From the IMG/VR virus record IMGVR_UViG_3300045988_057867: 47,590 bases of DNA. One strand, 5' to 3'. Under the pieces are notes generated by a model. The model was not told the origin of the DNA and ran no database searches. It saw only the letters and a program-made list of their open reading frames with translations. A program made the position numbers and the translations under genes. Source of the stretch: a virus. Positions 7,362 to 45,538 of this stretch are shown one piece after another (positions within the stretch are counted from its first letter, which is position 1; every line of letters starts with the position of its first letter).

Positions 7362-8416
7362 TAAAGCACCTTTGCCACAAACCAGCTGTCAACAGCGTGT
7401 GGAACGGCAAGTGGTGCAGAAGAAAGCTGTAAGAATCTTCTGTCTGGTTTGTGTTCAATCCATGTGTTAGGTACATATTTCCCTTCTACTGTGACGAACT
7501 GTTTTGAAGTATCATCTAATTTTGTTACTGCGCCATACAACATGGAATAGTTCGCGTTGCTTGATAACAGTGCAAGTGTTCCATCTGGTACCATTGGTTT
7601 ATCCTCCGGCGTTTCCGGTTTTGTCCAGTCGTCAAGATACCATTCGTTGTATGTGTAAATATCAAGTCCCAGTTCCTGAATACTTCCCACGTAAGTTACG
7701 CCATCCGGTAGCTGGCGTGGCTGAATAACTGCAAGCTGGTAATTTCTTACATCAAGCATTTTCTGCACTTTCGGGTGTGCAAGAAATGCTGTTGCTACAT
7801 CATCTGCCATAATGCACATATCGCAGTTTGTAAAACCTGTCTTTTGTACTTTCTTATGCCAGCGTTTCAGGTCTGCGATCGGGTCTGAATTTTCGTTGCT
7901 CCATTTTTTTGTTGCGGTAGAAATTGTTTCTGTGTTCGTAAATTCAAAATCAATTTCTTCGTTCAGCCCTTCCCCGATAATCGGGATTTTTCCTGTAAAG
8001 ATTGACTGTGTACACATAAGTTCTTCACGGCGTGCAATCATGTCCTGTAGTTCCATGAAATCTGCTGCCAGTTTCTGTACTGCTCTTTCTGCTGGTGTCA
8101 TTCCAGATACAAGGCTTTCTCCCGGAAGTCGTGTCAGAAGATTGTCAACTGTTGTGATCTTGTCCGGTGCAACCAGTGGCGGTGTATAGCTTTTTGTTGT
8201 GTAGCCTTTGTTTGCTACTGTTTTACTTCCGATACGTGGGTGTACATATGGTGCAACCTGTCTTGAACCTTTTACAAAATCAATATCAACAGCTTTTGTT
8301 GAAAATGTATCTTCATGTTTGAAGAATGTTTTTCTAAAAAACATATGTACTGGCGGGATGCTCAATACAACACGGTTCATGGTCCGTGGTTCGTAAATGC
8401 TTACTTCATTTGCCAT
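7361..8416 (-). CDS. Major capsid protein (lambda gpE family)
   Basis: 351 aa. FFRKTFF near the N-terminus and the C-terminal LQLSSAPLAVPHAVDSWFVAKVL parallel lambda gpE (LFFRESY..., IQSAPLMLLADPDEFVSVQLA). Confidence 0.85.
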   Translation of the reverse strand: MANEVSIYEPRTMNRVVLSIPPVHMFFRKTFFKHEDTFSTKAVDIDFVKGSRQVAPYVHPRIGSKTVANKGYTTKSYTPPLVAPDKITTVDNLLTRLPGESLVSGMTPAERAVQKLAADFMELQDMIARREELMCTQSIFTGKIPIIGEGLNEEIDFEFTNTETISTATKKWSNENSDPIADLKRWHKKVQKTGFTNCDMCIMADDVATAFLAHPKVQKMLDVRNYQLAVIQPRQLPDGVTYVGSIQELGLDIYTYNEWYLDDWTKPETPEDKPMVPDGTLALLSSNANYSMLYGAVTKLDDTSKQFVTVEGKYVPNTWIEHKPDRRFLQLSSAPLAVPHAVDSWFVAKVL

Positions 8417-15869: not shown

Positions 15870-17306
15870 TTACTCTTCCACATCCTCTAACAATCCCAAA
15901 TCTGCTGCAACTTCTCTTTTCAGGATTCCTGCTACCACATAACCGCTGTTGATCGCAGAAGACGTGTCTTCGTTATCAACGCATGTTATATACATGTCTG
16001 TTACTTCTCCCGTGGCTCTGCCACCTTCAAACACCTGTGCTACAATTATGTCTCCCGTCTTGAAATGCTCTGTGTCTTTCAGAATTATGTATGGTTTCTT
16101 TCCGTCCTCTATTTCCGCGTGCTGATTCTTTGAAATTCGTACATACTTCTTTTTCTTTGTGTCCCCGGGCAGATTCTGCATTTTTTCTTCCTGCTCTTTT
16201 TCTTTCAGTTTCTTTTTGGTTTCTCTGTCAATTGCTGCCTGTTCCCGGTTGTACTTCTGTTCTTCTGTCAGTCTCGCTTCTTTTCGGTTTACATATGTGT
16301 TGCACTTTGTTACTGTGGCTTTCTTTTCGTGGCACACTTCGTATTTATCGCAACTGTAGCATAATGATTCTACTGTTTCCGGTGTTGGGTCTTCCCACTC
16401 TTCCGGTTCTGTTTCCTGTTCTGGCGTTTCTTCTGTCTTTTCTGTCTCTTCTGTTTCTTTCTCCTGTTCTTCTGGTTCTGTTTCCTGCTCCGGTTCTTTG
16501 TCCTGCATTTCTGGCAATACCATCTGACCCGGGCACTGGCTTTCTGCTTCAATTTGTTTTTTCATCTGTTTTACTTCCGGCAGTGTCAGTTCTCCATTTT
16601 CCAGCAGTCTTTCATATGCTTTCATTTGCCATTCATGTTCCATGCCTGACACTTCAACAGCTACAGACATAATCAGTCTGCCTGCTTTGAACTCTTCCAT
16701 TAGTTCTTTTTCCAGATTATTGTATATTGCTTCATACCGTGAAATCTGCGCTTTTGTTATTCCGGTCAATTCCTCCTGCATCTCGCGAACGCGCCCCGCC
16801 AGATTGTATTCTTTCTTTATGTCTCGCACCAGTTCTTTAAGCTGTATGATTTCAACCATCTTTTCAAAGTCTGTTTTATCTCTAAAGCTGTTCGCCATGA
16901 TGATTGCCAGCTTGTCTGCTGTTTCCTCTTTCTTGTACATGCAAGGAATATACCGGAACTGTTCTTTTCCTTCTTCTACCAGTGCCAATGAAGCAAGGCG
17001 GCGGCGGTGTCCTGCGATCACGTCATATTTTCCATTTACGGGCTTTTTCACAATGCACGGCTGCAAAATGCCTACCAGTTCAATTGATCGTTTCAATGCT
17101 GCGTCTACATGATAAAAATTATCTTTCGACGGTATCATGTCGTATGCGTCAACCATGAATACGTTATTTCCCTGCTGTTTGTTTTCTTCTGTTCTCTCTT
17201 CCTGTGTTCCCTCTGCTGCCGGGTGCTGTTCTTCTGCTTCCTGTTTCTGCTTTGAACGCTGGTTCAGCAGGTCCATTAAATTAAACTTTTCTGCTTTTGC
17301 TGCCAT
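15870..17306 (-). CDS. parB: ParB-like N-terminal domain protein with an acidic linker and a C-terminal ASCH/DUF3850-like domain
   Basis: ParB box LKRSIELVGILQPCIVKK...YDVIAGHRRRLASLAL. The linker is Glu/Thr/Pro-rich (EQETEPEEQEKETEETEKTEE). The C-terminal DGKKPYIILKDTEHFKTGDIIVAQVFEGGRATGEV resembles the ASCH-type fold. Confidence 0.7.
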   Translation of the reverse strand: MAAKAEKFNLMDLLNQRSKQKQEAEEQHPAAEGTQEERTEENKQQGNNVFMVDAYDMIPSKDNFYHVDAALKRSIELVGILQPCIVKKPVNGKYDVIAGHRRRLASLALVEEGKEQFRYIPCMYKKEETADKLAIIMANSFRDKTDFEKMVEIIQLKELVRDIKKEYNLAGRVREMQEELTGITKAQISRYEAIYNNLEKELMEEFKAGRLIMSVAVEVSGMEHEWQMKAYERLLENGELTLPEVKQMKKQIEAESQCPGQMVLPEMQDKEPEQETEPEEQEKETEETEKTEETPEQETEPEEWEDPTPETVESLCYSCDKYEVCHEKKATVTKCNTYVNRKEARLTEEQKYNREQAAIDRETKKKLKEKEQEEKMQNLPGDTKKKKYVRISKNQHAEIEDGKKPYIILKDTEHFKTGDIIVAQVFEGGRATGEVTDMYITCVDNEDTSSAINSGYVVAGILKREVAADLGLLEDVEE

Positions 17307-17329
17307 GCTCTTTACCTCCGTTTTGTGCC

Positions 17330-18112
17330 CTATTCGGTCACATTTTCGCTTAACTTCTTCAAATATTCTTCAACCAGTTTCTTGTAATCCAATGACGCGC
17401 CGCAGCGTGCAGAATATTCAATAATTGGTTCCCGTGCAAATGTACTGGGTTTCATTTTCGGTGTTCTTCTAATATGTGTTTCAAATAAATTGCAGTCCTG
17501 CATCTTCAAGAACTCTTCGCCCTGCAAATCAGCTTCATTTGTCCGGTCGAACTGGGTAATGAAACAGCCCATAAAGCGCAAATCCGGGTTCAAATCTTCT
17601 TTTGTGTTGCTGATCTGTTCTTTCAGTTCTGCCAGCCCATCAATTGCAAAATCGTCAATGGTAATCGGTACCATGACCGTATTTGACGCAACCAGTGCGT
17701 TTATTGTGCTTATGTTTATGTCTGGTGCATTATCTATGATGCAGTAATCATATTCACTGCTTACTTGCTGCAATGCTTTCTTTAATCTCGTTTGCTGCGG
17801 GCGCTGCTGATCTAACATAACCTTTAAATTCGCTGTAAGCAGGTTCATATTTGCTGTAATAACATCCAGCCCCGCAAAATCGGTATGCTGAATGATTTTT
17901 TTCATGTCCAGTGTTCTTTCTGTCATAATTTCCGCCATTCCTGCATGATCGTAGTTGTGACGGTTCAGAAACTTACTTGCATTTCCCTGTTTATCGTTAT
18001 CTATCAGCAATACCTTTTCCCCGTGTACTGCTGCCAGAATGTGCGCCATGTTGACGCTTGATGTTGTTTTTGCTACTCCGCCTTTTAGGTTGATAATTGA
18101 TAATGTCTGCAT
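17330..18112 (-). CDS. parA: ParA-family partition ATPase
   Basis: Deviant Walker A INLKGGVAKTTSSVNMA, followed by LLIDNDKQGNAS and IIDNAPD motifs. Confidence 0.85.
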   Translation of the reverse strand: MQTLSIINLKGGVAKTTSSVNMAHILAAVHGEKVLLIDNDKQGNASKFLNRHNYDHAGMAEIMTERTLDMKKIIQHTDFAGLDVITANMNLLTANLKVMLDQQRPQQTRLKKALQQVSSEYDYCIIDNAPDINISTINALVASNTVMVPITIDDFAIDGLAELKEQISNTKEDLNPDLRFMGCFITQFDRTNEADLQGEEFLKMQDCNLFETHIRRTPKMKPSTFAREPIIEYSARCGASLDYKKLVEEYLKKLSENVTE

Positions 18113-22210: not shown

Positions 22211-22540
22211 TTATCCCCTTTTCTTTTCTGGTTTCCGTTCTGGGTGTCCAAAAATATATTCGTACTCTGATACTATGCCGTGATCTGTTATAAACCGTAG
22301 TGAATACCAGTAACTGTTCCCGGTATCTTCGTACAGATCATATAGCCTGCTGCCGCGTTTCACGGTTCCTATCAGGTTGATTGACAGGTGGTCTTTTTTA
22401 TGTCCAGCTCTGGCTTCTACGTTGTATGCAGTTTTCAGCTTTTCTTTCAGTTCTTCTTGCGTGTATTCTCTCACTGCTCCTGCTCCAACTCTCTTTTTAT
22501 CCGACTTGCTTTTTCCAGTACCGTTTCTGCGTATTCGCAA
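22211..22540 (-). CDS. Hypothetical protein
   Basis: 109 aa. The annotated 5' end overlaps the SLT gene by 70 nt, so the true start may be the GTG near 22474. Confidence 0.5.
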   Translation of the reverse strand: MRIRRNGTGKSKSDKKRVGAGAVREYTQEELKEKLKTAYNVEARAGHKKDHLSINLIGTVKRGSRLYDLYEDTGNSYWYSLRFITDHGIVSEYEYIFGHPERKPEKKRG

Positions 22541-23235
22541 GTGTATTTCTTTTTACTGAAATAGTTTCTTTCTGCGCCTGTTGGTCCCCATCTGTACGCC
22601 GTCAGTGCCTTGTGGTAATTGTTCTGGTACTTTTTCAACAATTCTGCCATGCAATCAACTCCCGTCCTTATGTTCTGGTATGGGTTATCCACATTTTGCA
22701 CACCGATTTTGTTCATACGGTCCTTGTGGTATTCCGGTATGATCTGCATATATCCGGTTGCATCGTCTGCTGCCGCGTCCCACTGGTACCCACTTTCTGC
22801 TTCGATCATTGCCAGAATGGTTGTATAGTCAACCTTGTACTGTTTGCAGGTGCAATAGGTGTATATCTGTACTATTTCCGGCAAGCATCCGCCATACATG
22901 CTATATTTTTCTGGTATCTTGTAATATGTAAACCCGTCCAGATCGCCTGCGCCCCAGTCCCGGCTTATTGTGTTATACGGGTATATATCGTTGTCCGGGT
23001 CGTTTGCCCGCACTGTCGTTACTGGCTGCATGTCCACCAGTTCTACCGCTTCTGTTGTGATTTCTGCTGTCTGCTGCGGTTCTGGTCCCGGTTTTGTGTA
23101 TGTAAGCGCTGTACAGTATGTTGCTGCCATGATTCCTGCTGCCGCTACAACAGCAACAGTAATCATTGTTCTTTTAATTCTTTTTACTTGCAGTTCTCTT
23201 TTTCGCTGTCTTGCGCTTTTTCTTGCCTGCTGCAC
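22471..23235 (-). CDS. Membrane-anchored lytic transglycosylase (SLT domain)
   Basis: N-terminal TM helix (MITVAVVAAAGIMAATY). SLT motifs are ILAMIEAESGYQWDA, ATGYMQI and YQNIRTGVDCMAELLKKY. Confidence 0.75.
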   Translation of the reverse strand: MQQARKSARQRKRELQVKRIKRTMITVAVVAAAGIMAATYCTALTYTKPGPEPQQTAEITTEAVELVDMQPVTTVRANDPDNDIYPYNTISRDWGAGDLDGFTYYKIPEKYSMYGGCLPEIVQIYTYCTCKQYKVDYTTILAMIEAESGYQWDAAADDATGYMQIIPEYHKDRMNKIGVQNVDNPYQNIRTGVDCMAELLKKYQNNYHKALTAYRWGPTGAERNYFSKKKYTCEYAETVLEKASRIKRELEQEQ

Positions 23236-24103
23236 CTTTCGTTCCTCCTGTCTTTTTCTTCCACATCTTCACATAAATGTGCCACCCTGTTTCCTCATGC
23301 CATTCTGGTTTCACTTCGCTTATGCTGTATGCCGGGAACTGGCGTTCAAAAAACTCTTTTCCTGCGTCCCCGGATTTTGCCAGCTGTTCCACTTTTGCCT
23401 TGCTGTATTTATGATCTGCTGGCGGCTGTACAATCGGTCTTTTCAGATTCCGGCTGCTGCTCCACCTTTTCTTCCCCTGTGGGTTCTTCACAACATACTT
23501 GCATAGCGCTTCAATGCCGTTTTCATTTGTCTGTATACGGTCCGTGTTTACCCATCCCATTTTCTTTATGGTTCCAGCGTACCTTTCCGTGTCTTCTTTG
23601 TACTTCTTCCAGTTGATACGCTTCTTCGTCCACATCATTTCCACTTCATCACGCGGTAATCCACCGTTCATAATAATGTGGTGGTGTATTCTTATCGGGT
23701 GTTCCTGTGCTTCGTCCTCTTTCTTGTAGCCATATTCAGTCACAAGAATGTATTTCAGCGGTTCGATACCCAGTTTCTTTCTGCGGTATGCTATCCGGCG
23801 TAAGTAGTTATTTACTATCCTTTCTGCTTCTTCCGTTGTTTCTGGTAAATCTGCATCTGTGTATGTTGCTGATACGTGCAGATCACCTTCACCAAAATTC
23901 CCGTTACCCAACTGCACCAGATACCGTTTACTGTTCTTGTCGTTCAGGTCCTTTTGTTTTGGCTCTGTTGCTTTTCTTCTTTTCCCTCTTTTACCCTTTA
24001 CTGCCCTTTCTGCATTATCTGTCCGCGGTATTACATCAACTTCCCTGTATAACCCGCAGTCCGTCTTCTTCTCTCTGTAGAACATTTTCTGTCCTTTCCC
24101 CAT
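23174..24103 (-). CDS. Putative HUH rolling-circle replication initiator (Rep-like)
   Basis: Three ordered motifs are present: YILVTEYG (motif 1-like), IRIHHHIIMNG (HUH) and EALCKYVVKN (YxxK). The true start may be the second ATG (MFYREKK). Confidence 0.5.
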   Translation of the reverse strand: MGKGQKMFYREKKTDCGLYREVDVIPRTDNAERAVKGKRGKRRKATEPKQKDLNDKNSKRYLVQLGNGNFGEGDLHVSATYTDADLPETTEEAERIVNNYLRRIAYRRKKLGIEPLKYILVTEYGYKKEDEAQEHPIRIHHHIIMNGGLPRDEVEMMWTKKRINWKKYKEDTERYAGTIKKMGWVNTDRIQTNENGIEALCKYVVKNPQGKKRWSSSRNLKRPIVQPPADHKYSKAKVEQLAKSGDAGKEFFERQFPAYSISEVKPEWHEETGWHIYVKMWKKKTGGTKGAAGKKKRKTAKKRTASKKN

Positions 24104-24298
24104 ATGTTGCAGAGTGGGTATCTAAAGGGTATGCTATCCCCTTTCCGATCTGTCCATTATCCCCATGTATGATACTGTTATATATGTTCTATACACTATG
24201 TATATATATTTATATATCGTGGGAATGTTAATACCCCATACAAGCCCGTTAAGCGGTTCCAAACCCCGCATAAAATGGGGCTTTTCCGCCCCTTTTGC

Positions 24299-24327
24299 TT
24301 GCATTTCCTGCGTCAACATGGTATAAT
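24299..24327 (+). promoter_or_regulatory. Strong sigma-A-type promoter TTGCAT-17 nt-(TGg)TATAAT on the plus strand
   Basis: -35 at 24299..24304, TG at 24319..24320 and -10 at 24322..24327. No ORF with an RBS follows it. Confidence 0.55.
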
Positions 24328-24333
24328 GTACTT

Positions 24334-24412
24334 AATCATATTTTTATACTTTTAGTTGACTTAAAGCCCTTGCATTTCGTGCTACCAACACATTTGCAAG
24401 GGCTTTTTGTTG
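24334..24412 (+). ncRNA. Candidate ~75-80 nt small RNA (promoter to terminator)
   Basis: The predicted start is just after the -10. The hairpin AAAGCCCTTGCA(N20)TGCAAGGGCTTT at 24363..24406 is followed by TTTTTG. There is no start codon or RBS inside. It is convergent with the DGR target gene. Confidence 0.35.
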
Positions 24413-24442
24413 CCCTTTTATTTCAGGCTTTCTTCTGGTGCG

Positions 24443-25471
24443 TTACCACGCACCTTTCAGTGTTTCAGTCACCAGTTCCCAGTCTTCCAGAATTAAAGCG
24501 GAGCGCAGCGAATCGCTGAAGCTGCAGTGAGCACGCGGGTCATGAAGGCTAAGCGCAGACGCGCCGCCGTAGCTGGGGTTGTTGAAACTCGAACCGCGAA
24601 ACGGAACTGCTTCTTCAAGTGTGCTGTCTACCCAGATTCCCGTCTTTTCTTCCTTGTAGTTCTTTGGTACAATACCCAGCTTGTGTGCGATCTCTGGAAC
24701 TTCTTTTAATGTTCCTGCAAGTTTTAAATCTCTGTAGTGATCTCCTCGCCAATCCCCGGCAATTTCCCCGTCTGTCAGTGTTACGCGTCCCATTTGAACA
24801 TCAAGGTATAATTCTTTTCCGGTTTCCTCTGCGACTGCTGCCGTCCAGTGTTCGCTTTCTTCGCTCGTGTCTACTGCTGCCGCGTCATTTTCCTTTATAT
24901 GTTCCACTCTTCCTCTGTTCAACCTTAACCCGGTTACTGGCTCCCAGTAGTTCCCGCATAGCCCAAATACGCCGTCTTCTGTTCCATCATGGGACCATGT
25001 AAGCGGGTCGCATCCGGTCAATGTGCAGTAACCGTCATACAGCGCGCCCCGTTCTTCCGGTGCATCTGCGCACTTTCCGCAATTTGTATTTCCGTGAATG
25101 GTCTTTCCCATCTTTGCTGCTTCATTCAACAGATAGACAAATTCTGTATTTGTCAGCAGGTGCCATCCGTCGCCCTTCTTTTTGCACATTTCTTCTGCTT
25201 CCGTGAAAGTCTTTCTTTCAATAGGCATGTTGTACGGCATGGAATGTGGAATGCCTTTGATCTCTGTATTATGAAATTGTGAGATTGCAACGCCCTGTAC
25301 GATCTTCCCATTTACTTTGAACATATCCGGTACGTCTTTTTCATCCGGTTTGCCGTCTCTCGGGTCCATAAAAAACAGTGTCATAAAATCAGGAATCCCG
25401 TTTTTGTCCTTGATAACTACTTTTGTTCTCCATACGGTGCATGTTCCGTATTTCACCATCTTTAATGCCAT
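24443..25471 (-). CDS. DGR variable protein 1 (C-type-lectin/FGE-like fold, remote target)
   Basis: 342 aa paralog of 38298..39347 (KKKGDGWHLLTNTEF, GNTNCGK, PLTWSHDGTEDGVFGLCGNYWEPVTGLRL). The C-terminal RGSSFNNPSYGGASALSLHDPRAHCSFSDSLRSA is encoded by VR1. Confidence 0.85.
   Translation of the reverse strand: MALKMVKYGTCTVWRTKVVIKDKNGIPDFMTLFFMDPRDGKPDEKDVPDMFKVNGKIVQGVAISQFHNTEIKGIPHSMPYNMPIERKTFTEAEEMCKKKGDGWHLLTNTEFVYLLNEAAKMGKTIHGNTNCGKCADAPEERGALYDGYCTLTGCDPLTWSHDGTEDGVFGLCGNYWEPVTGLRLNRGRVEHIKENDAAAVDTSEESEHWTAAVAEETGKELYLDVQMGRVTLTDGEIAGDWRGDHYRDLKLAGTLKEVPEIAHKLGIVPKNYKEEKTGIWVDSTLEEAVPFRGSSFNNPSYGGASALSLHDPRAHCSFSDSLRSALILEDWELVTETLKGAW
24496..24606 (-). repeat. DGR variable region VR1
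   Basis: Colinear with TR 37606..37716. There are 15 mismatches at TR adenines (coding strand) and 1 at a non-adenine position. Confidence 0.85.
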
Positions 25472-25941
25472 TTTCTTTTCCTCCTGTTTCTGGTATGATT
25501 TTTATTTCTTTTACCTGACAGTCGTTGTACTGTCAGGATTTTTGCTGTTTTAACCACTGGCGGTTCCGGTATGTTCAATAGTTCCCTGTACCGTTCCTGT
25601 GCCGCCCATCTTTCCGCCTGCTGCCTTGCTTCATTAATCATGTCTGGCACTACTGAAAAAGCTGCGAACATTTTTGCTGTTTCTTTCGCCCAGCTTGACA
25701 TGCTTTCTGATATTGTCGCTGCTCCCCGCTTTAGCGCATCTGAAATCCGCTTTGCAAAGTCGCCGTCTTCCATTGGTCTTACCTTGTCCCACGGTCTTTG
25801 ATATTTCCGCAATGTTTCATGGTTCAGCTGTTGTTTTGGTGCTGGTATCTTTGGTTGTACATTTCTTCGTACATCCGCAATCTTTGGCGGGTTGCTTCCG
25901 TGCTGCTTTTTATACAGCTTCTTTTTCTGTCTTTTATTCAC
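25462..25941 (-). CDS. Hypothetical basic protein
   Basis: 159 aa with Lys/Arg-rich termini. Confidence 0.55.
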   Translation of the reverse strand: MNKRQKKKLYKKQHGSNPPKIADVRRNVQPKIPAPKQQLNHETLRKYQRPWDKVRPMEDGDFAKRISDALKRGAATISESMSSWAKETAKMFAAFSVVPDMINEARQQAERWAAQERYRELLNIPEPPVVKTAKILTVQRLSGKRNKNHTRNRRKRKWH

Positions 25942-26159
25942 CTTACCTCGCCTTTCTTTCTCGCTATCTCCTGTGCAACGTCTTCTTTCATCAATTCAAT
26001 AATTGCCATCATTGCGCCTATTCTTCTGTCGAACACTTCCGCCAGAATTTCTTCCAGTTCTTCAAGTTTGATTCCTGACAGCAGGCAAAATGTATAAATT
26101 TTGAACTTCGGTATTATGTCCAGTCTGCTTATTGCTTCGTGTACGTCAATCCTTGTCAT
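25938..26159 (-). CDS. Hypothetical protein
   Basis: 73 aa, translationally coupled (4-nt overlaps on both sides). Confidence 0.55.
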   Translation of the reverse strand: MTRIDVHEAISRLDIIPKFKIYTFCLLSGIKLEELEEILAEVFDRRIGAMMAIIELMKEDVAQEIARKKGEVR

Positions 26160-27157
26160 TTTGTTTCCCTCTCTTCTCCTAAAATGATCTTACGAAATAT
26201 GCTTTCAAATATAGGAACCGCAATGCTGTTACCCGCCTGTCTGTATAAAGTTGTGTAATATCTGCCCCGGCGCTGGTGTACTGCTTTTGCCGCTTCAAAC
26301 TCCGTGTCTGTATATCCCATCAGCCGCCAACACTCCCGTTCTGTCAAATACCTGTATCTGCCATTTCCGCAGTCAATCACCTGTGCTGGTGTACGGTCTT
26401 GTCTGGTTGTGATCGTATATGCAAAATCTTTTATAACTGTTGCCCGTTTGATTCCGGTTTTTCCGATCACGCTATATACGGACGGTTGCGTTACGTCATA
26501 TGCTTTCGGTACGCTGTCGCTATTTTCCAGAAAATCAGAAATATTTTTCATTGGTGTTCTTACCAGCTTTTCAAAATCAAACTTTTCCCCGTTTAAGCAG
26601 CTGATTGTAAAGACCCTTTCGCGCGCCTGTGGTAGTCCAAACTCCCTTGCGTCCAGAACGTCATAATTGTTCGTGTACCCCAGACGTTCCATTTCTTTCT
26701 GATACCGTACAAAATTTTCTATCATATACTTTGACGTGACGTTTTTCACGTTTTCCCATATCACGTACTTTGGTTTCCATTCTCCCATCTGTTCAATGAT
26801 ATGTATGGTTTCCCACATCAGGCTTGAACGGGTTTTGCTTCCTTCGTCGGCACCTCTTCCCCTGTTTATTCTCCCATCTGCTGCCGTTGCTTTCCCTTGA
26901 TGTCCTGCAATACTCATATCTTGGCAAGGACTGCCATGTATCAAAATGTCAGGTCTAAGGTTCCACCCGACAACTGTTTGTATTTTGTATGGCAGTTCTT
27001 CCGAAAACATATTGTTGTATGATCTCACTGCCTGTTCGTCGATTTCCACATAGTCAATTGCTTTTGTTGGTATCTTTAAATTTCGCAATGCGCAACGCGG
27101 GCTTCCAATTCCTCCGAATAGTTCCAGTATTTGCACTGGTTTTTCTTCGGTTATCAC
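26156..27157 (-). CDS. DNA (cytosine-5)-methyltransferase
   Basis: Motifs are in order: ELFGGIGS (I), HGSPCQDMSIAG (IV), WENVKNV (VI) and QAGNSIAVPI (X). Confidence 0.9.
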   Translation of the reverse strand: MITEEKPVQILELFGGIGSPRCALRNLKIPTKAIDYVEIDEQAVRSYNNMFSEELPYKIQTVVGWNLRPDILIHGSPCQDMSIAGHQGKATAADGRINRGRGADEGSKTRSSLMWETIHIIEQMGEWKPKYVIWENVKNVTSKYMIENFVRYQKEMERLGYTNNYDVLDAREFGLPQARERVFTISCLNGEKFDFEKLVRTPMKNISDFLENSDSVPKAYDVTQPSVYSVIGKTGIKRATVIKDFAYTITTRQDRTPAQVIDCGNGRYRYLTERECWRLMGYTDTEFEAAKAVHQRRGRYYTTLYRQAGNSIAVPIFESIFRKIILGEERETK

Positions 27158-28132: not shown

Positions 28133-28292
28133 CTGTTGCCAGATCGTAGCCGATCTTTACGCCGCGCAGTAATGTTTCAAAACTGCTTTTCTGTTCCTCT
28201 GTCAGTAGCTTTGCAAAGTCCAGAACGTCTGCTGCTTCTTTCTGGTTTTCTGCTGCCAGAATCATTTCCAGTGCTTTTCTGTTTTCTGCCAT
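28110..28292 (-). CDS. Hypothetical protein, first gene of the leftward early operon (Cro position)
   Basis: 60 aa, divergent from the XRE repressor gene. No HTH recognised. Confidence 0.45.
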   Translation of the reverse strand: MAENRKALEMILAAENQKEAADVLDFAKLLTEEQKSSFETLLRGVKIGYDLATGGAAKTA

Positions 28293-28363: not shown

Positions 28364-28393
28364 ATAATATACCAGGTCACTTGTATTTGTCAA
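28364..28393 (-). promoter_or_regulatory. Leftward early promoter TTGACA-18-TATTAT with an operator in the spacer
   Basis: The minus strand reads TTGACAAATACAAGTGACCTGGTATATTAT. Confidence 0.6.
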
Positions 28394-28413: not shown

Positions 28414-28442
28414 TTGACATTTATACAAGTGACTGGTATTAT
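28414..28442 (+). promoter_or_regulatory. Rightward repressor promoter TTGACA-17-TATTAT with an operator in the spacer
   Basis: The plus strand reads TTGACATTTATACAAGTGACTGGTATTAT, a near mirror image of the leftward promoter. Confidence 0.6.
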
Positions 28443-28477: not shown

Positions 28478-28918
28478 ATGACTATTAATGAACGAATTAA
28501 ATATTTCAGAAAAGAAATTAAAAAGATGAATCAGAAGCAATTCGCGGAAATTCTTGGTGTTACCCAGTCCGGCGTAAGTTATATGGAGCAGGAAGGGTCC
28601 ACTGTGGCAGACAGTAGTATAAAGGTTATTTGTTCTGTTTGTGGATTAAATGAAGAATGGTTGCGAAATGGTCTTGAACCAATGACCGTGCAACCGGAAA
28701 CATTCAATCTTGATGAATTTGCCCGGGCGCGTGGCGCGTCTGATCTTGAACTGAAAGTTGTGAAAGCGTATTTTGAACTTGACCCGGACATTAGAAAAAT
28801 GCTCATAGAACATTTTAAGACGGAATTAACGGACAGCAACGATCATCCGAAAACGCCGGAAGAACTGGAAAGTCAGTACCCAGTTGAAGAAGAAGGGTCA
28901 GGGCTGGGGGCTGGGTAA
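28478..28918 (+). CDS. XRE-family HTH repressor (CI-like)
   Basis: NERIKYFRKEIKKMNQKQFAEILGVTQSGVSYMEQ is a classic XRE HTH. The gene is divergent from the early operon. Confidence 0.8.
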   Translation: MTINERIKYFRKEIKKMNQKQFAEILGVTQSGVSYMEQEGSTVADSSIKVICSVCGLNEEWLRNGLEPMTVQPETFNLDEFARARGASDLELKVVKAYFELDPDIRKMLIEHFKTELTDSNDHPKTPEELESQYPVEEEGSGLGAG

Positions 28919-29907: not shown

Positions 29908-31293
29908 ATGATAAAAAAAGAACTTTCTACGGGTCCGCTTCGTGTTGCACTTTACATACGTGTTTCCGGTGAAGAACAAAAGATAAAAGGGCTTTCGCTG
30001 GAAGCGCAACAAGAACGTTTGGAAGAATACGCGCGGCAGCAAGGCTGGGTGGTTGTCGGTATATATATCGACGCTGCAAAAACTGCCCGTAAAGATATGC
30101 GGAAGCGTTCTGAATTTCAGAAAATGATTAGCTCTGTCAAGCGTGATGAAATAGACTTGCTTCTGTTCTGCCGCCTTGACCGCTGGTTTCGATCTGTCGC
30201 AGACTATTACAAGATCATGGAAATACTGCAAACACATCACTGTGACTGGAAGACTACAGATGAAGAATACGACACAAGTACCGCGAACGGTCGTTTGTAT
30301 ATCAACGTCAAATTATCAATCGCCCAGAATGAAGCTGATATTTGTAGTGAAAGAATCTCTGTTGTATTTGACAGTAAGGTACAACACGGCACGGTTGTTT
30401 CCGGTAACTGTCCTTTTGGTTACGTCGTGAATGAAGAAAAGCGCCTTTCCATTGACCCAGACGCTGCCGCGATCGTCCGGGACGCTTTTAATTATTATGA
30501 ATCTTCCGTAAGCCAGCGTGGTACCATCCGGCATATCCGGGAAACCTACGGTGTGAACTGGTGTGATGCTACTTTTCGCCGTATGCTTGCTGAGCGTCTT
30601 TACACTGGTGTTTATGACAGTAACAAGAGATTTAATGAAAATTTTTGCGATCCTATAATAGATGCAGCGCAATTTGATCGCGTACAAAAACTTTTGAAAA
30701 AAAATGCTCGTTTTTCTCCTGCCGGAAATATTTACATTTTCACATCAATTTTAAAATGTGCCGAATGTCTTCATAATCTTTCCGGCTGTCGCACTCGTTC
30801 TGGCAATCATTATTACTACTATTACCGCTGCAACCAGCACTTACAACGCGGCAGATGCAGTCATAATAAATCTGTTCGTGAATCTTATGTTGAAGAATGG
30901 CTTTTTGAACATCTGGGGGAAGAACTGGAACGTTGTAAACTGGAATGGGACGTACAAGCGGCAGAACGTAAAAAGAAAACTCGCTCAACAGATAAAGCGG
31001 TTTTGAAACGGAAATTGACAAAGTTAAAAGAACTGTACATGGATGATCTGATTACTATTGAAGAATATAAAAAAGACTACCAGATATATACTGCTGCCCT
31101 GCAACAGATACCAGATGAAGTTCCAGAAGAAACGCCGCCGGACTTTTCCGCTGTGGAAAGAATGTTGCAAGCAGATTTTAAAAGCATATATGATTCCCTG
31201 ACCCGTGAAGAAAAACGGACGCTCTGGCGCTCTGTTATATCAGAAATTCGTGTTGACCGTGATAATAACATCACGGGAATTATTTTTGGGTAG
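29908..31293 (+). CDS. Large serine recombinase (integrase)
   Basis: The N-terminal resolvase domain is ALYIRVSGEEQKIKGLSLEAQQERLEEYA. It also has a recombinase domain, a zinc ribbon (CAEC...YRCNQHLQRGRCSH) and a C-terminal coiled coil. Confidence 0.9.
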   Translation: MIKKELSTGPLRVALYIRVSGEEQKIKGLSLEAQQERLEEYARQQGWVVVGIYIDAAKTARKDMRKRSEFQKMISSVKRDEIDLLLFCRLDRWFRSVADYYKIMEILQTHHCDWKTTDEEYDTSTANGRLYINVKLSIAQNEADICSERISVVFDSKVQHGTVVSGNCPFGYVVNEEKRLSIDPDAAAIVRDAFNYYESSVSQRGTIRHIRETYGVNWCDATFRRMLAERLYTGVYDSNKRFNENFCDPIIDAAQFDRVQKLLKKNARFSPAGNIYIFTSILKCAECLHNLSGCRTRSGNHYYYYYRCNQHLQRGRCSHNKSVRESYVEEWLFEHLGEELERCKLEWDVQAAERKKKTRSTDKAVLKRKLTKLKELYMDDLITIEEYKKDYQIYTAALQQIPDEVPEETPPDFSAVERMLQADFKSIYDSLTREEKRTLWRSVISEIRVDRDNNITGIIFG

Positions 31294-35830: not shown

Positions 35831-36273
35831 TTTTTGTCACCTTCCCTTTCTGCCTTTTCATCAGCAAGAAAATCATTTGTTTCTGCACAATGTAAATAAA
35901 TCTGCTCCACGTATTTAAAAGCAGCATCCACGCAGCCATTTTCCAGCCCGTTTTCTTTCACATATATTTCGTAATTGTCGTGGGCTTTAAAGAAGTTGTT
36001 AAACTCTTCTTTTGTATGCCTGCGGTGATTCATACAGCTATTAGCAAAGTCAAGGATTTCTGCCCGCCAGCTTTCAATCTTATGTTCCTGTAAATCCTTT
36101 TCAATTTTGTTCAACTGTTCTTTTATATCGTGGTTCATCAATGACCCCACCTGTTTTATCAGGTAGCGTACAGGTTGTATCTTGATTCCCGGTGTCAGGT
36201 CCACCACTATTCCCACTGCTGCCAGCCACGCAAGAACTGTTCTGCATACTTCCCAGATTTCCGTTGTCTCCAT
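35821..36273 (-). CDS. Membrane-anchored hypothetical protein
   Basis: 150 aa with an N-terminal TM helix (VLAWLAAVGIVVDL). Its first 173 nt overlap the 3' end of the RT ORF in another frame. Confidence 0.5.
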   Translation of the reverse strand: METTEIWEVCRTVLAWLAAVGIVVDLTPGIKIQPVRYLIKQVGSLMNHDIKEQLNKIEKDLQEHKIESWRAEILDFANSCMNHRRHTKEEFNNFFKAHDNYEIYVKENGLENGCVDAAFKYVEQIYLHCAETNDFLADEKAEREGDKKCG

Positions 36274-37357
36274 TTACTTTCAATACCTCCTTTGCATACA
36301 TTTCATTTAAACTTTTACGCAGACCGTAGCTGTTGAAGTGTTTCAGTATTCCCCGGTATGAAGCAACGCTTCTGTCAAGTGTTTCTTTGTCGATCTCCCC
36401 GACTGCATACGCATTAAATACATATTTCAGTCGCTTTTTCATCTTCTTTGCAGTCTTCTTTCGTAGTTTTCTGTGTGTGGACCATATGCGGAACCCTACG
36501 AACTCCACGCCCATTGTTACCGGGCGTATGCAGGTTTTCTTGTTTAACTGCAAATTCAGATATTCTTTCAGGAAATCTTCAATGCAACGCTTCATGGTTT
36601 CCAGTTCCCTTTTATTGTTGTGCAGAATTATTACATCATCCATGTACCGTATATAGTAATGGATTCGCAACTTATGTTTGCAGTATTGATCTAATTCGTT
36701 CAAATACAAATTCGCAAACATTTGTGAAGTCAAGTTGCCTATTGGTAAACCTACGCCGAACAGCATTTCGTCAAAAGCAACGTCGCCTATGTCTGCACCC
36801 ATTGGCAAACCAAACCTTGTGTCCTCACAATCAATGATCTTTGCCAGCAGGTCCAGTAATTGCTTGTCTTTGATCTGCCTTGCAAGAATGTTTTTCAGTA
36901 TTTCATGGTCTATTCTGTAGAAATACTTTGATACATCCAGTTTTAAGTAATAATACTTTTCTGGTTTCCTTTCGGTCTGTCTCATCCATCCTTGTAGGCG
37001 GTCAATTGCTGCATGTGTGCCATATCCCACGCGGCAAGCATAGCTGTCTTTTATGTACTGCTTTTCTATCAGCGGGTTAAGCTGCCTGTAGATCGCATGT
37101 TGTGCAACACGGTCTTTAAATTGAAGCGACATAATGAGCCGCTTCTTTGGTTCGTAAACATAAAACATGTGGTAATGCCCGACTTCATAAAGTCCCCATA
37201 TCAGGTTATTTTGCAGGTCAAACAGATTTTCTTCTAATTTGTCTGCATACTCCATTACATCAGGACGGTACCTCTTTGATTTTATTGCTGCTTTGTAGGC
37301 TTCCAGCAGGTTTTCAAAATCATATATTTTCGGGAAAAGGTTTTTTATCGTTTGCAA
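36101..37357 (-). CDS. DGR reverse transcriptase
   Basis: TTG start with RBS GGAGGG. RT motifs are YLKLDVSKYFYRIDH, GLPIGNLTSQMFANLYL (the DGR-typical I/LGxxxSQ) and YIRYMDDVIIL. A TR lies immediately upstream. Confidence 0.9.
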   Translation of the reverse strand: MQTIKNLFPKIYDFENLLEAYKAAIKSKRYRPDVMEYADKLEENLFDLQNNLIWGLYEVGHYHMFYVYEPKKRLIMSLQFKDRVAQHAIYRQLNPLIEKQYIKDSYACRVGYGTHAAIDRLQGWMRQTERKPEKYYYLKLDVSKYFYRIDHEILKNILARQIKDKQLLDLLAKIIDCEDTRFGLPMGADIGDVAFDEMLFGVGLPIGNLTSQMFANLYLNELDQYCKHKLRIHYYIRYMDDVIILHNNKRELETMKRCIEDFLKEYLNLQLNKKTCIRPVTMGVEFVGFRIWSTHRKLRKKTAKKMKKRLKYVFNAYAVGEIDKETLDRSVASYRGILKHFNSYGLRKSLNEMYAKEVLKVNGDNGNLGSMQNSSCVAGSSGNSGGPDTGNQDTTCTLPDKTGGVIDEPRYKRTVEQN

Positions 37358-37605: not shown

Positions 37606-37718
37606 AAGCGGAGCGCAGCGAAATGTTGTTGTTGCTGTTAGTACGCGGGTTATTAAGGTTAAGCGCAGATGCGCCGCCGTTGCTGGTGTTGTTGAAACTC
37701 GAACCGCGTAACGGAAGC
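37606..37718 (-). repeat. DGR template repeat (TR)
   Basis: 113 nt matching VR2 (38309..38421) and VR1 (24496..24606). In coding sense it has 28 adenines, including AAC AAC AAC AAC, and translates as PLRGSSFNNTSNGGASALNLNNPRTNSNNNISLRSA. Confidence 0.9.
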
Positions 37719-37780: not shown

Positions 37781-38215
37781 TCACTTTTTCTTTGTTTTCT
37801 GTGGATTCAGTGAATTGTAATAACCGCCTATCATTTTACCGATTTCATTTGCTTTCCTGCTCCATACTTCGTACTGGTGTACGCTGATACATGGTTTCTG
37901 ATCTGGGAAAGAATTTTTGTCCTGTGCTATCTGTAAGCATTGCCGCAGCCAGTCCAGTTCTGTGTCAAGATCGCCCAGCGTCGTTTTCTTGAATGTTTTA
38001 TTTTCCAGTCTTATTACTAAGTGCATAATGTCATACATTGCGTTCTTTATTTGCAGTGCCAGTCCGTATCTTTCCACTTTCGGGAAATTCCGCAGTATCG
38101 GGTTTCCGTACTGTATCATTTCCCTTACCTTATTTTTCATCTTGAAATCGTTTTGCGTGGCGTTGTTTCTCACCTCTTCCAGCAGTTGTTCTGGCTTTTC
38201 TGTTTCTTCTGCCAT
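37781..38215 (-). CDS. avd: DGR accessory variability determinant (Avd, four-helix-bundle family)
   Basis: 144 aa basic helical protein with NFPKVERYGLALQIKNAMYDIMHLVIRL, the Avd / 23S-rRNA-IVS-protein motif. It lies between the target gene and the TR. Confidence 0.8.
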   Translation of the reverse strand: MAEETEKPEQLLEEVRNNATQNDFKMKNKVREMIQYGNPILRNFPKVERYGLALQIKNAMYDIMHLVIRLENKTFKKTTLGDLDTELDWLRQCLQIAQDKNSFPDQKPCISVHQYEVWSRKANEIGKMIGGYYNSLNPQKTKKK

Positions 38216-38248: not shown

Positions 38249-38272
38249 TAGGGATTGCTGCCGCAATCCCTA
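38249..38272 (-). other. 10-bp stem / 4-nt loop hairpin downstream of VR2 (candidate DGR target-recognition hairpin or terminator)
   Basis: TAGGGATTGC-tgcc-GCAATCCCTA. It lies 36 nt past the VR2 boundary and 25 nt past the stop codon. Confidence 0.5.
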
Positions 38273-38297
38273 CAGTGATACAGTGTGCAGTTTCCAG

Positions 38298-39347
38298 TTA
38301 TTCATAATAAGCGGAGCGCAGCGAACCGCTGCCGCTGCTGCCAGTACGCGGGTAAGAAAGGTAAAGCGCAGAAGCGCCGCCGTCGCTGGTGCCGAGGAAA
38401 CTCGAACCGCGTAACGGAAGCCTTTCCCCGTGGTTTCTTGCATAAAATCTTCCCGGTGTTGTCATTCCGGTTTCTGGGAAAATTCCTGCTGCAATTAACA
38501 GCTTTGGAATGCTTACGCCGCTTGCTGCTTTTACATCTTTAAAGAATGAGTTAGTGTCGTTGCTGTCTGTCGTTCTGGTTGTTACAGTAGTGTTAATACG
38601 CAGTGCCCCGTCACTTGCACTGGTACGGTCGATCTTCAATGTTCCTTCTGTTCCCGGTTCAACCAGTGTTCCATCTGGCATAATTGCTTTCCATTCAGTG
38701 CTATTCGCTCCCATGTTGCAGGTCAGCTTCATACAATTACCGTACGGAATAATCTGAATTTCACCATCAACCAGACGTAAACCAGAAACCCACTCCCATG
38801 TGTTGCCGCATAAATCAGCGATACCTGCCGGGGTGCCATCATGGTTCCATGTTACAGGACCCGAACCAGTTGCAGTTCTTCCGCCTTTATGTTCGCCGTC
38901 AATGTATGTGTTCATTCCACGTTCCCATGCTTTTTCGTAGCTTGCGTCCCAGTTGGTGTTCCCGCGTGGGATAAATCCGTTTTTCATACACCATAAATTC
39001 AGTGCTGCAAAAATTCCGTTCTGGTTCAGGTGCCATCCCTGCCCTTTCTTACGGCAAGCAGCCACTGCCTGATCGAAATTGATATAGCATTTAGGGTCTT
39101 TTAATGCCAATGAATATGCACGGTCATTAACAACAGTGTTAATGTATTTTGATACCCAGATGTTTTTTTCTACTCCATCAACAATCCACCACGGCATTGT
39201 TTCCTGTGTTCCGTCTGCAATCACGTCTGAATACTTCATTTTCGGAACCAGTACCATAATTGACGGTTTTCCCAGATCATCAAAAATAACCCGGTTGTTT
39301 GCCCCAAAAGAAGCTACCGCCATTGCAAGATCATCAAAATTACTCAT
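38298..39347 (-). CDS. DGR variable protein 2 (C-type-lectin/FGE-like fold; probable receptor-binding tail-fibre protein)
   Basis: 349 aa with RKKGQGWHLNQNGIF, GNTNWDAS and PVTWNHDGTPAGIADLCGNTWEWVSGLRL. The C-terminal RGSSFLGTSDGGASALYLSYPRTGSSGSGSLRSAYYE is encoded by VR2. It is the last gene of the tail-fibre cluster. Confidence 0.85.
   Translation of the reverse strand: MSNFDDLAMAVASFGANNRVIFDDLGKPSIMVLVPKMKYSDVIADGTQETMPWWIVDGVEKNIWVSKYINTVVNDRAYSLALKDPKCYINFDQAVAACRKKGQGWHLNQNGIFAALNLWCMKNGFIPRGNTNWDASYEKAWERGMNTYIDGEHKGGRTATGSGPVTWNHDGTPAGIADLCGNTWEWVSGLRLVDGEIQIIPYGNCMKLTCNMGANSTEWKAIMPDGTLVEPGTEGTLKIDRTSASDGALRINTTVTTRTTDSNDTNSFFKDVKAASGVSIPKLLIAAGIFPETGMTTPGRFYARNHGERLPLRGSSFLGTSDGGASALYLSYPRTGSSGSGSLRSAYYE
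38309..38421 (-). repeat. DGR variable region VR2
   Basis: 113 nt colinear with the TR. There are 17 mismatches at TR adenines and 1 at a non-adenine position. Confidence 0.9.
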
Positions 39348-45277: not shown

Positions 45278-45538
45278 CTACTCTTCTTCGTCTGTTTCTT
45301 CGTCGTAATCAACCAGTTTCCACGGTGGTAAACCGCTGTCAATGGTTCTTTCGTTTTCATCCTCTGCCGGGATGATTAATTCTATCCCGGCAGAAAATAC
45401 GGCAATGTGCGCGTACTCAATATTTGCTTTTATAAGCATGTCTGTATTGTACACATCTTCCATTGTCTTGTATGCTATCATGTCCCATGTGTCCCCAGAT
45501 TCTGTTGTGTAGGTTTTAATCGTATACTGTTCTGTCAT
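45278..45538 (-). CDS. Tail protein X-like (P2 gpX, LysM-like fold)
   Basis: YTTESGDTWDMIAYKTMEDVYNTDMLIKANIEYAHIAVFSAGIELIIP parallels P2 gpX (LQGDTLDAICVRYYG...LPHGTAVELP). Confidence 0.65.
   Translation of the reverse strand: MTEQYTIKTYTTESGDTWDMIAYKTMEDVYNTDMLIKANIEYAHIAVFSAGIELIIPAEDENERTIDSGLPPWKLVDYDEETDEEE

Follow-up and report, generated by a model that had tools for sequence, protein, structure and literature searches.

A second, remote target of a diversity-generating retroelement in the early region of a temperate myovirus-like phage genome

In the diversity-generating retroelement (DGR) of Bordetella phage BPP-1 (mtd-avd-TR-brt), sequence is transferred from a template repeat (TR) to a variable repeat (VR) with changes specific to adenines. 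The VR occupies the 3′ end of a gene encoding a C-type-lectin (CLec) fold and closes on an invariant GC-rich end. The BPP-1 cassette is known to act in trans, and its target sites carry hairpins with 7-10-bp GC-rich stems and four-nucleotide GRNA loops, placed after the VR and needed for efficient homing (Guo et al. 2011, PMC3240598). A prophage DGR of Thermus aquaticus has TaqVP (PDB 5VF4) as its variable protein, a monomeric, single-domain CLec protein of the formylglycine-generating enzyme (FGE) type (PMC6328139). DGRs associated with phages often pair an adjacent target with a non-adjacent one in the same prophage; where a VR is internal to its gene, the site for initiation of mutagenic homing (IMH) is forced to overlap coding sequence, and non-adenine changes and frameshifts occur (Wu et al. 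2018, PMC5758913). Rewriting of both VRs has been shown in Roseburia phage Shimadzu, whose second VR belongs to orf43/44, of unknown function (Cornuault et al., bioRxiv 10.1101/575076). Both VRs of Faecalibacterium phage Lagaffe also vary, and a 2024 study proposes a doubled search for tropism (PMC11792537). Here, we describe a gene, T1, in the virus record IMGVR_UViG_3300045988_057867 of IMG/VR, a stretch of 47,590 nucleotides that we refer to as the window. Adenine-specific transfer, a VR at the 3′ end of a CLec-fold gene with an invariant GC-rich end, and a hairpin with a GRNA loop after the VR are shared by the T1 system. We conclude, with a probability of roughly 85%, that T1 is a genuine and used second target of the single DGR of this phage, rewritten by the mechanism proposed below.

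T1 (24443-25471, - strand) encodes 342 amino acids behind a strong GGAGG ribosome-binding site, and shares its genome with a reverse transcriptase (RT; 36101-37357, -; RVT_1, phrog_1423), the accessory protein Avd (37781-38215, -; bAvd, phrog_3206) and, between these two genes, the TR (37606-37716, -). A cassette-linked target, T2 (38298-39347, -), lies at the distal end of the baseplate module and contains VR2 (38309-38419). A repeat search recovered three in-register copies, namely the TR, VR2 and VR1 (24496-24606, -). The last of these spans 111 nucleotides, encodes residues ~289-326 of T1 and is colinear with the same TR as VR2, as claimed in a first-pass annotation made from the letters of this DNA. 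On the coding (-) strand, VR1 differs from the TR at 16 of 111 positions, and 15 of these are TR adenines (seven A>G, five A>T and three A>C), the number which that annotation had reported. VR2 shows 18 mismatches, 17 of them at adenines. Given 28 adenines in 111 bases, the hypergeometric probability of this bias is 3.8e-10 for VR1 and 7.5e-12 for VR2. The two repeats are mutated in common at 11 positions, with an identical base at just three, while five mutated positions are private to VR1 and seven to VR2. Each has therefore been written independently, which had also been proposed. The TR includes an Asn-rich segment and 10 AAY codons; mutagenesis of its adenines can reach no stop codon, and ~5e15 peptide variants are possible. 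T1 displays about 18 variable residues, and so up to the same number of sequences.

The sole non-adenine mismatch in both VRs falls on the same TR thymine, at position 94 (37623), where VR1 has A (24513) and VR2 has G (38326). Related TRs also have T at this position and their VRs retain it. Either an A stood here in this TR at the time when the two VRs were last copied from it, or this T is occasionally misread by the RT.

Searches of IMG/VR found 17 orthologs of T1, and anchoring on the neighbouring replication gene (Rep) gave many more. Each of 54 unique T1-type loci has a distinct VR1 sequence (54/54). Among 12 loci of clade-3 relatives, the flanks are essentially invariant and the VR is hypervariable, with variation in 21 of 22 TR-adenine columns. 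Eight of the ten variable non-adenine columns of VR1 in these loci correspond to polymorphisms that also segregate among TRs. Such shared variants travel as whole haplotypes, for example AATGTGTCCTTGCG or AACGTTTCGCTCCG, and the non-adenine variants in the VR1s of loci L003 and L004 are those seen in L019-type and L020-type TRs, respectively. Pairs of TR and VR1 on one contig show 9, 12 and 13 adenine-site changes against 0, 0 and 1 at other bases. Since VR1 inherits non-adenine polymorphisms of the TR, the target is being actively rewritten and has not decayed. By these sequence comparisons, diversification of VR1 is ongoing at the level of the lineage.

The first-pass annotation had named two signs of a decayed, inactive target: differences from the TR that are not adenine-specific, and a VR1 that is invariant while VR2 varies. 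Neither describes what we find, as the differences are adenine-specific and diversification is equal in the two repeats, with ~11 of 22 TR adenines changed in each among related genomes. The closest relative of the window phage, L002 (IMGVR_UViG_3300045988_056149, with a T1 ortholog at 95% identity), has a one-nucleotide deletion in VR1 (7465-7563) that frameshifts the last ~33 codons; the copy may be dead, or the assembly of a mixed population may be at fault. The mismatch at TR position 94 and this frameshifted VR1 might suggest that VR1 is a relic, that is, an old paralog whose 3′ end is still TR-like but is no longer rewritten. We consider this highly improbable. VR1 is 86% identical to the TR in DNA, whereas the T1 and T2 proteins are only 31% identical, its mismatches are adenine-specific, and its recognition element is intact. 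Further, it takes 54 different forms in 54 loci beside flanks that are invariant in the clade examined, and it co-varies with the TR at non-adenine polymorphisms. At lineage level, this sequence evidence excludes a decayed target.

The T1 and T2 proteins are colinear over a 331-residue alignment (E 4e-33), have the motifs GWHL, GNTN and LCGN.WE.V.GLRL in common, and are both assigned to phrog_2889. The earlier description of T1 as a full-length paralog of the cassette-linked target is thus upheld, and the degree of divergence indicates that T1 is an ancient paralog of tail-linked T2, derived from an old duplication. T1 also matches TaqVP in sequence (E 1.9e-23), with T1 residues 239-327 aligned to TaqVP 298-384, a segment that spans the TaqVP VR (341-381). 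This alignment would place the VR of T1 on the C-terminal ligand-binding surface of the CLec fold. Structure prediction, suggested by the first-pass annotation for both targets, gave AlphaFold models with predicted local distance difference test (pLDDT) scores of 86.6 for T1 and 88.4 for T2, and a predicted template modelling score of 0.90 for T1. Foldseek compared the T1 model with TaqVP over its full length at a template modelling (TM) score of 0.79, and with Mtd at 0.28-0.30; the Mtd-type N-terminal β-prism/β-sandwich trimerisation domains are not found in T1. As modelled, T1 is a single-domain, TaqVP-like CLec fold of the FGE type.

At E <= 0.01, no Pfam family was found for T1 or T2, PF03781 (FGE-sulfatase) included, although some homologs do match PF03781, as do the Lagaffe and Roseburia orthologs discussed below. 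T2 has an N-terminal helix (residues 2-12) that is conserved in its family and absent from T1. T1 has a second divergence hotspot outside the VR, at 24794-24917 (residues 185-226), which includes an indel. Compared with the near-identical phages L003 and L004, T1 and the adjacent upstream gene p159 of the window diverge several-fold faster than Rep and another early gene, p73.

VR1 ends in an invariant GC-rich segment, TTCGCTGCGCTCCGCTT (24496-24512, -), which is identical in TR, VR1 and VR2 and resembles the proximal part of an IMH. Past this 17-nucleotide end the TR diverges at once, reading CACCCC... where both VRs are followed by four ACTG units, a distinction of the IMH/IMH* kind. In T1, the resulting periodic spacer, ACTGGGAACTGGTGACTGAAACACTG (24458-24483, -), is part of the coding sequence, where it specifies ..DWELVTETL... 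The pattern ACTGN3ACTGN3ACTGN4ACTG has two matches in the window (24458-24483 and 38273-38298; 0 expected by chance), both of them directly after a VR, and a regex survey found the four-unit spacer in none of 25 sequences classed as TR. Beyond the spacer of VR1 stands a hairpin, GGTGCGT-GGTA-ACGCACC (24437-24454, -), with a 7-bp GC-rich stem and a four-nucleotide GRNA loop. Translation of T1 ends at a TAA (24443-24445) that straddles the loop and the first base of the 3′ arm. The corresponding element of VR2 (38251-38298, -) consists of the ACTG spacer at 38273-38298 and then a hairpin, GGGATTGC-GGCA-GCAATCCC (38251-38270). It is non-coding save for an overlap with the T2 stop codon, and its ACTG repeats are in another reading-frame phase than those of T1.

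Both hairpins fit the description given by Guo et al. (2011), with that of VR1 lying 41 nucleotides past the end of homology, slightly outside the published range of 4-34 bp. Hairpins with GRNA loops are present in 53 of the 54 T1-type loci. An apparently non-canonical loop in clade 3, ACAG, was dropped, since the hairpin, re-registered with one mismatch allowed in its stem, has a GACA loop in keeping with GRNA.

After the residues ...SLRSA, T1 continues for 17 further residues (LILEDWELVTETLKGAW) and T2 for three (YYE). The first-pass annotation had noted 16 extra residues after the VR, a figure that is in essence correct. It exists because no stop codon intervenes between the VR and the hairpin, so that the recognition element is translated. 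The related T1-type open reading frames (ORFs) examined all read through the spacer, and many continue through the hairpin, resulting in tails of 13 to ~26 residues. Among nine T1-type representatives (53-60% identical to the window protein), the residues that change in the tail (E/K/Q, D/S, V/I) are those encoded at the N positions of the DNA motif, and in none of them does a synonymous codon take the place of CTG (Leu) or ACT (Thr). The main constraint therefore appears to act on the DNA.

Alternatively, selection might act on the tail as protein, for instance as a docking helix, in which case it would not chiefly be the by-product of a translated recognition element. We rate this as a substantial possibility that falls somewhat short of even odds. 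The AlphaFold model of T1 predicts a helix at residues 331-340, residues W331, V334 and L338 are nearly invariant across the family, all T1-type genes examined read past the VR, and distant early-type orthologs extend for 115-140 residues beyond it. Yet the same spacer and hairpin follow VR2 in another reading-frame phase, at or beyond the T2 stop, replacements keep to the N positions, synonymous sites in the CTG cores are fixed across clades, and tail length is set by where a stop codon happens to fall. The two explanations are compatible, and both can hold.

T1 was earlier placed in a co-oriented early operon beside a Rep-like gene, and its surroundings agree. The Rep-like replication initiation gene (23174-24103, -; phrog_3584, PF23343) lies downstream, while p159 (25462-25941, -), whose stop overlaps the T1 start by 10 nucleotides, and a C5 DNA methylase gene (26156-27157) lie upstream on the same strand. 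This position is conserved. T1 is followed by a gap of ~340-380 nucleotides and then Rep in all 17 T1-anchored IMG/VR loci, it lies upstream of Rep in 58 of 67 Rep-anchored loci, and the same order recurs in genomes of 17 Lachnospiraceae species. The GTDB relatives were found with a profile query, a scan with single-protein patterns having given none. The view that T1 is a rare accessory gene, based on an exact DNA motif (17 contigs) and on cluster numbers (166 vs 2667), was overturned by the Rep-anchored search. Similarly, p159 had been considered a co-evolving partner of T1 on account of its overlapping stop and fast evolution, and was dropped because it is absent beside T1 in other clades.

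The other nine Rep-anchored loci (L170, L172, L173, L175-L177, L179, L188 and L189) have no T1-like match upstream of Rep, and the seven of them that were inspected have small unrelated ORFs only in that place. A related DGR RT is present on at least two of the nine contigs. Some lineages have consequently either lost the second target or never acquired it.

T1 and Lagaffe gp40 are reciprocal best hits, as are T2 and the tail-linked Lagaffe gp26. Lagaffe gp40 precedes exonuclease, Gam, Erf and SSB genes, and the same arrangement occurs in a Roseburia prophage, where a T1-like gene stands just ahead of exonuclease and Erf genes. The sharing of this arrangement implies that the duplication is old, and that the early-region position has outlived replacement of the replication module. 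Lagaffe gp40 (L099 31798-33060) and the target of the Roseburia sp. prophage (L220 2989-4341) carry acidic, helical post-VR extensions of 115-140 residues, for which Pfam gave no informative match; in both, a 3′-5′ exonuclease gene follows immediately.

The intergenic region between T1 and Rep (24104-24442) contains a terminator-like hairpin, GCCCTTGCA...TGCAAGGGC (24366-24403), bordered by an A-run and, on its opposite side, a T-run. These borders give it the look of a bidirectional terminator, and hairpin-forming sequence recurs at this site in related clades. The same region holds a second hairpin (24277-24292) and an AT-rich stretch at ~24150-24230. On the + strand, the promoter-like site TTGCAT-17-TGgTATAAT (24299-24327) points into the hairpin at 24366-24403, and could give rise to an RNA of ~80 nucleotides antisense to read-through from T1 to Rep. 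For the leftward operon that includes T1, the best sigma-70-like promoter match is at 28366-28393 (-), and is a consensus match only. Promoter and terminator scans of the window were no richer than those of shuffled controls, and were used as weak support alone. From the continuity of the operon, the gene overlap, the promoter match and the terminator-like hairpins, we infer that T1 is the last gene of a leftward early transcription unit and is made early.

We propose that a complex of RT and Avd copies TR RNA (37606-37716), with random bases placed opposite adenines, and that the resulting cDNA would replace VR1 in trans, 13.1 kb away and independently of VR2. By analogy with BPP-1, the site would be recognised via the invariant GC-rich end of the VR, the ACTG spacer, and the GC-rich hairpin with its GRNA loop. 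In T1, this element is translated to form the 17-residue tail, with the stop codon in the hairpin loop.

With regard to function, we think it most likely that T1 provides a second ligand-binding specificity, which evolves on its own and does not simply duplicate the baseplate receptor-binding protein, although this is the part of our interpretation that we hold with the lowest confidence. Whether T1 is expressed early and serves away from the baseplate we judge to be evenly balanced. The gene lies outside the structural module, in the early operon between methylase and Rep. Its conserved early position, the overlap of its start with the p159 stop, the terminator-like hairpins, the lack of a T2-type N-terminal helix, and the class-specific C-terminal extensions all point towards a non-baseplate role.

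The competing view sees in T1 a second receptor-binding or adhesin protein carried by the virion, one whose gene happens to lie beyond the structural module but whose product is assembled onto the tail in trans, where it would double the host-range search space. T1 shares a TaqVP/Mtd-type CLec fold with the baseplate-linked T2, with which it is colinear over its full length, and the viral proteins that match it in structure do so for the most part through the C-termini of tail fibres. Such a role was proposed for the two Lagaffe targets by those who studied that phage, and all five evolved isolates of Shimadzu carry mutations in both VRs. Nevertheless, a position at the head of the replication genes, kept across genera with different replication modules, is unexpected for a tail protein, and no adaptor or fibre genes are adjacent to T1. 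The missing T2-type helix and the post-VR extensions peculiar to T1-type proteins, of 13 to ~140 residues, also count against it, and the retention of both copies since an ancient duplication (31% identity) argues for non-redundant roles. We give this view roughly one chance in three.

The first-pass annotation had offered a non-structural role and a second receptor-binding protein as alternatives. To these, our analysis adds that the early position is conserved across distant genera and that the tail is encoded by a cis-acting element, additions that choose neither. We speculate that myophages of Lachnospiraceae and Oscillospiraceae possess an ancient, hitherto undefined 'early-type' class of DGR targets that includes T1. 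Its members would always head replication or recombination genes, always read through their recognition element into a C-terminal extension, and act as hypervariable intracellular or free binders in place of tail-tip receptor-binding proteins. We hold this reading to be less likely than not. If such a class does exist, possible roles for its members include neutralising variable host defence or surface components.

Several points weigh against our interpretation of T1 and its function. The demonstration of VR1 activity extends to the lineage but not to this individual phage, whose nearest relative, L002, carries a frame-breaking deletion of one nucleotide in VR1. One VR1 mismatch (T>A) falls on a TR thymine, at position 94. 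Early expression of T1 is argued from gene order and consensus scans only. Finally, the fold shared by T1 and T2, together with the mutation of both Shimadzu VRs in all evolved isolates, would also fit a virion role.

The window comprises the ~47.6-kb genome of a temperate myovirus-like phage, with nearly all genes on the - strand. Tandem repeats of 132 nucleotides (44 residues) at 46694-47590 run off the window end and resume at 1-196, and the sequence is therefore circularly permuted. They lie inside a large gene (45516-47570, -), which is probably the tape measure gene, judging by its position relative to that of Clostridium phage Saumur. The leftward operon begins near 28292, and the genes that it faces encode a serine integrase (29908-31293, +) and a repressor (28478-28918, +). 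The promoter-like site of the repressor (28414-28442, +) is divergent from that of the operon. The operon proceeds through small ORFs, the methylase, p73, p159, T1 and Rep, followed by an SLT transglycosylase, a VRR-NUC nuclease and ParA/ParB, and then by terminase, head and tail genes. The DGR cassette is placed after the baseplate genes, in the order T2, Avd, TR and RT, and lysis genes come next. An Rfam search of the window gave no match. The window phage mixes integrative and plasmid-like maintenance functions, with its serine integrase alongside ParA/ParB (15870-18112) and, in the early region, the HUH-like PF23343 Rep with the SLT transglycosylase (22471-24103). Such a mix is also present in Saumur.

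The system differs from that of BPP-1 in several respects. The window phage has a second target, at a distance of 13 kb from the cassette, and both targets are single-domain, TaqVP-like proteins in place of the trimeric Mtd (Foldseek TM ~0.3). Its hairpins lie 38-41 nucleotides past the end of homology, where 4-34 bp is reported, with the ACTG spacer in between, and in T1 the whole element is inside coding sequence. TaqVP is the closest solved structure to T1 and has its VR in the same C-terminal segment (PMC6328139). However, the VR of TaqVP is at the very C-terminus of a cassette-adjacent gene, whereas T1 is remote and extends 17 residues past its VR. The survey of Wu et al. (2018, PMC5758913), which documents non-adjacent targets, defines no early-operon target class.

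Shimadzu and Lagaffe resemble the window phage in being temperate gut myophages of Firmicutes whose single DGR serves two targets, of which one is by the RT in the tail module and the other is non-adjacent. Lagaffe gp40, like T1, is located in the early region, but the two are only 36% identical. In these phages, exonuclease, Gam and Erf genes are found downstream in place of an HUH-like Rep, and the post-VR extensions reach 115-140 residues in place of 17. A comparable periodic run, (A/C)TCTG, follows each of the two VRs in Lagaffe. Conserved early-operon placement, a CTG-periodic spacer and a translated recognition element were not found described in the DGR literature compared.

The closest deposited relative is Saumur (ON453901, a prophage of Enterocloster clostridioformis YL32), whose protein WAK79604.1 is 60% identical to T1. 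It has the T1 counterpart followed by Rep and SLT, with RT, Avd and T2 (WAK79546.1) ~11 kb away around the circle. It likewise shows adenine-specific differences in VR1 and an ACTG spacer followed by a hairpin with a GAGA loop. Unlike in the window, a PAPS-reductase-like gene lies upstream of the T1 counterpart instead of p159. WAK79604.1 is annotated as hypothetical only, and the paper describing the phage makes no mention of a DGR. The existence of this cultured relative, in OMM12 strain YL32, makes the function of T1 experimentally tractable.

The locus offers a clean, well-supported example of a phage in which two paralogous genes are written in trans by a single DGR cassette, and natural population data show the remote copy tracking its own template. 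It also illustrates that a recognition element composed of a GC-rich end, a CTG-periodic spacer and a GRNA hairpin can sit inside a reading frame. In addition, the retention of the early-operon position across distant phage genera raises the possibility that phages diversify a binding protein that is not part of the virion. Phage DGRs with two targets are already known from Shimadzu and Lagaffe, and the present case extends these published observations and overturns none of them.

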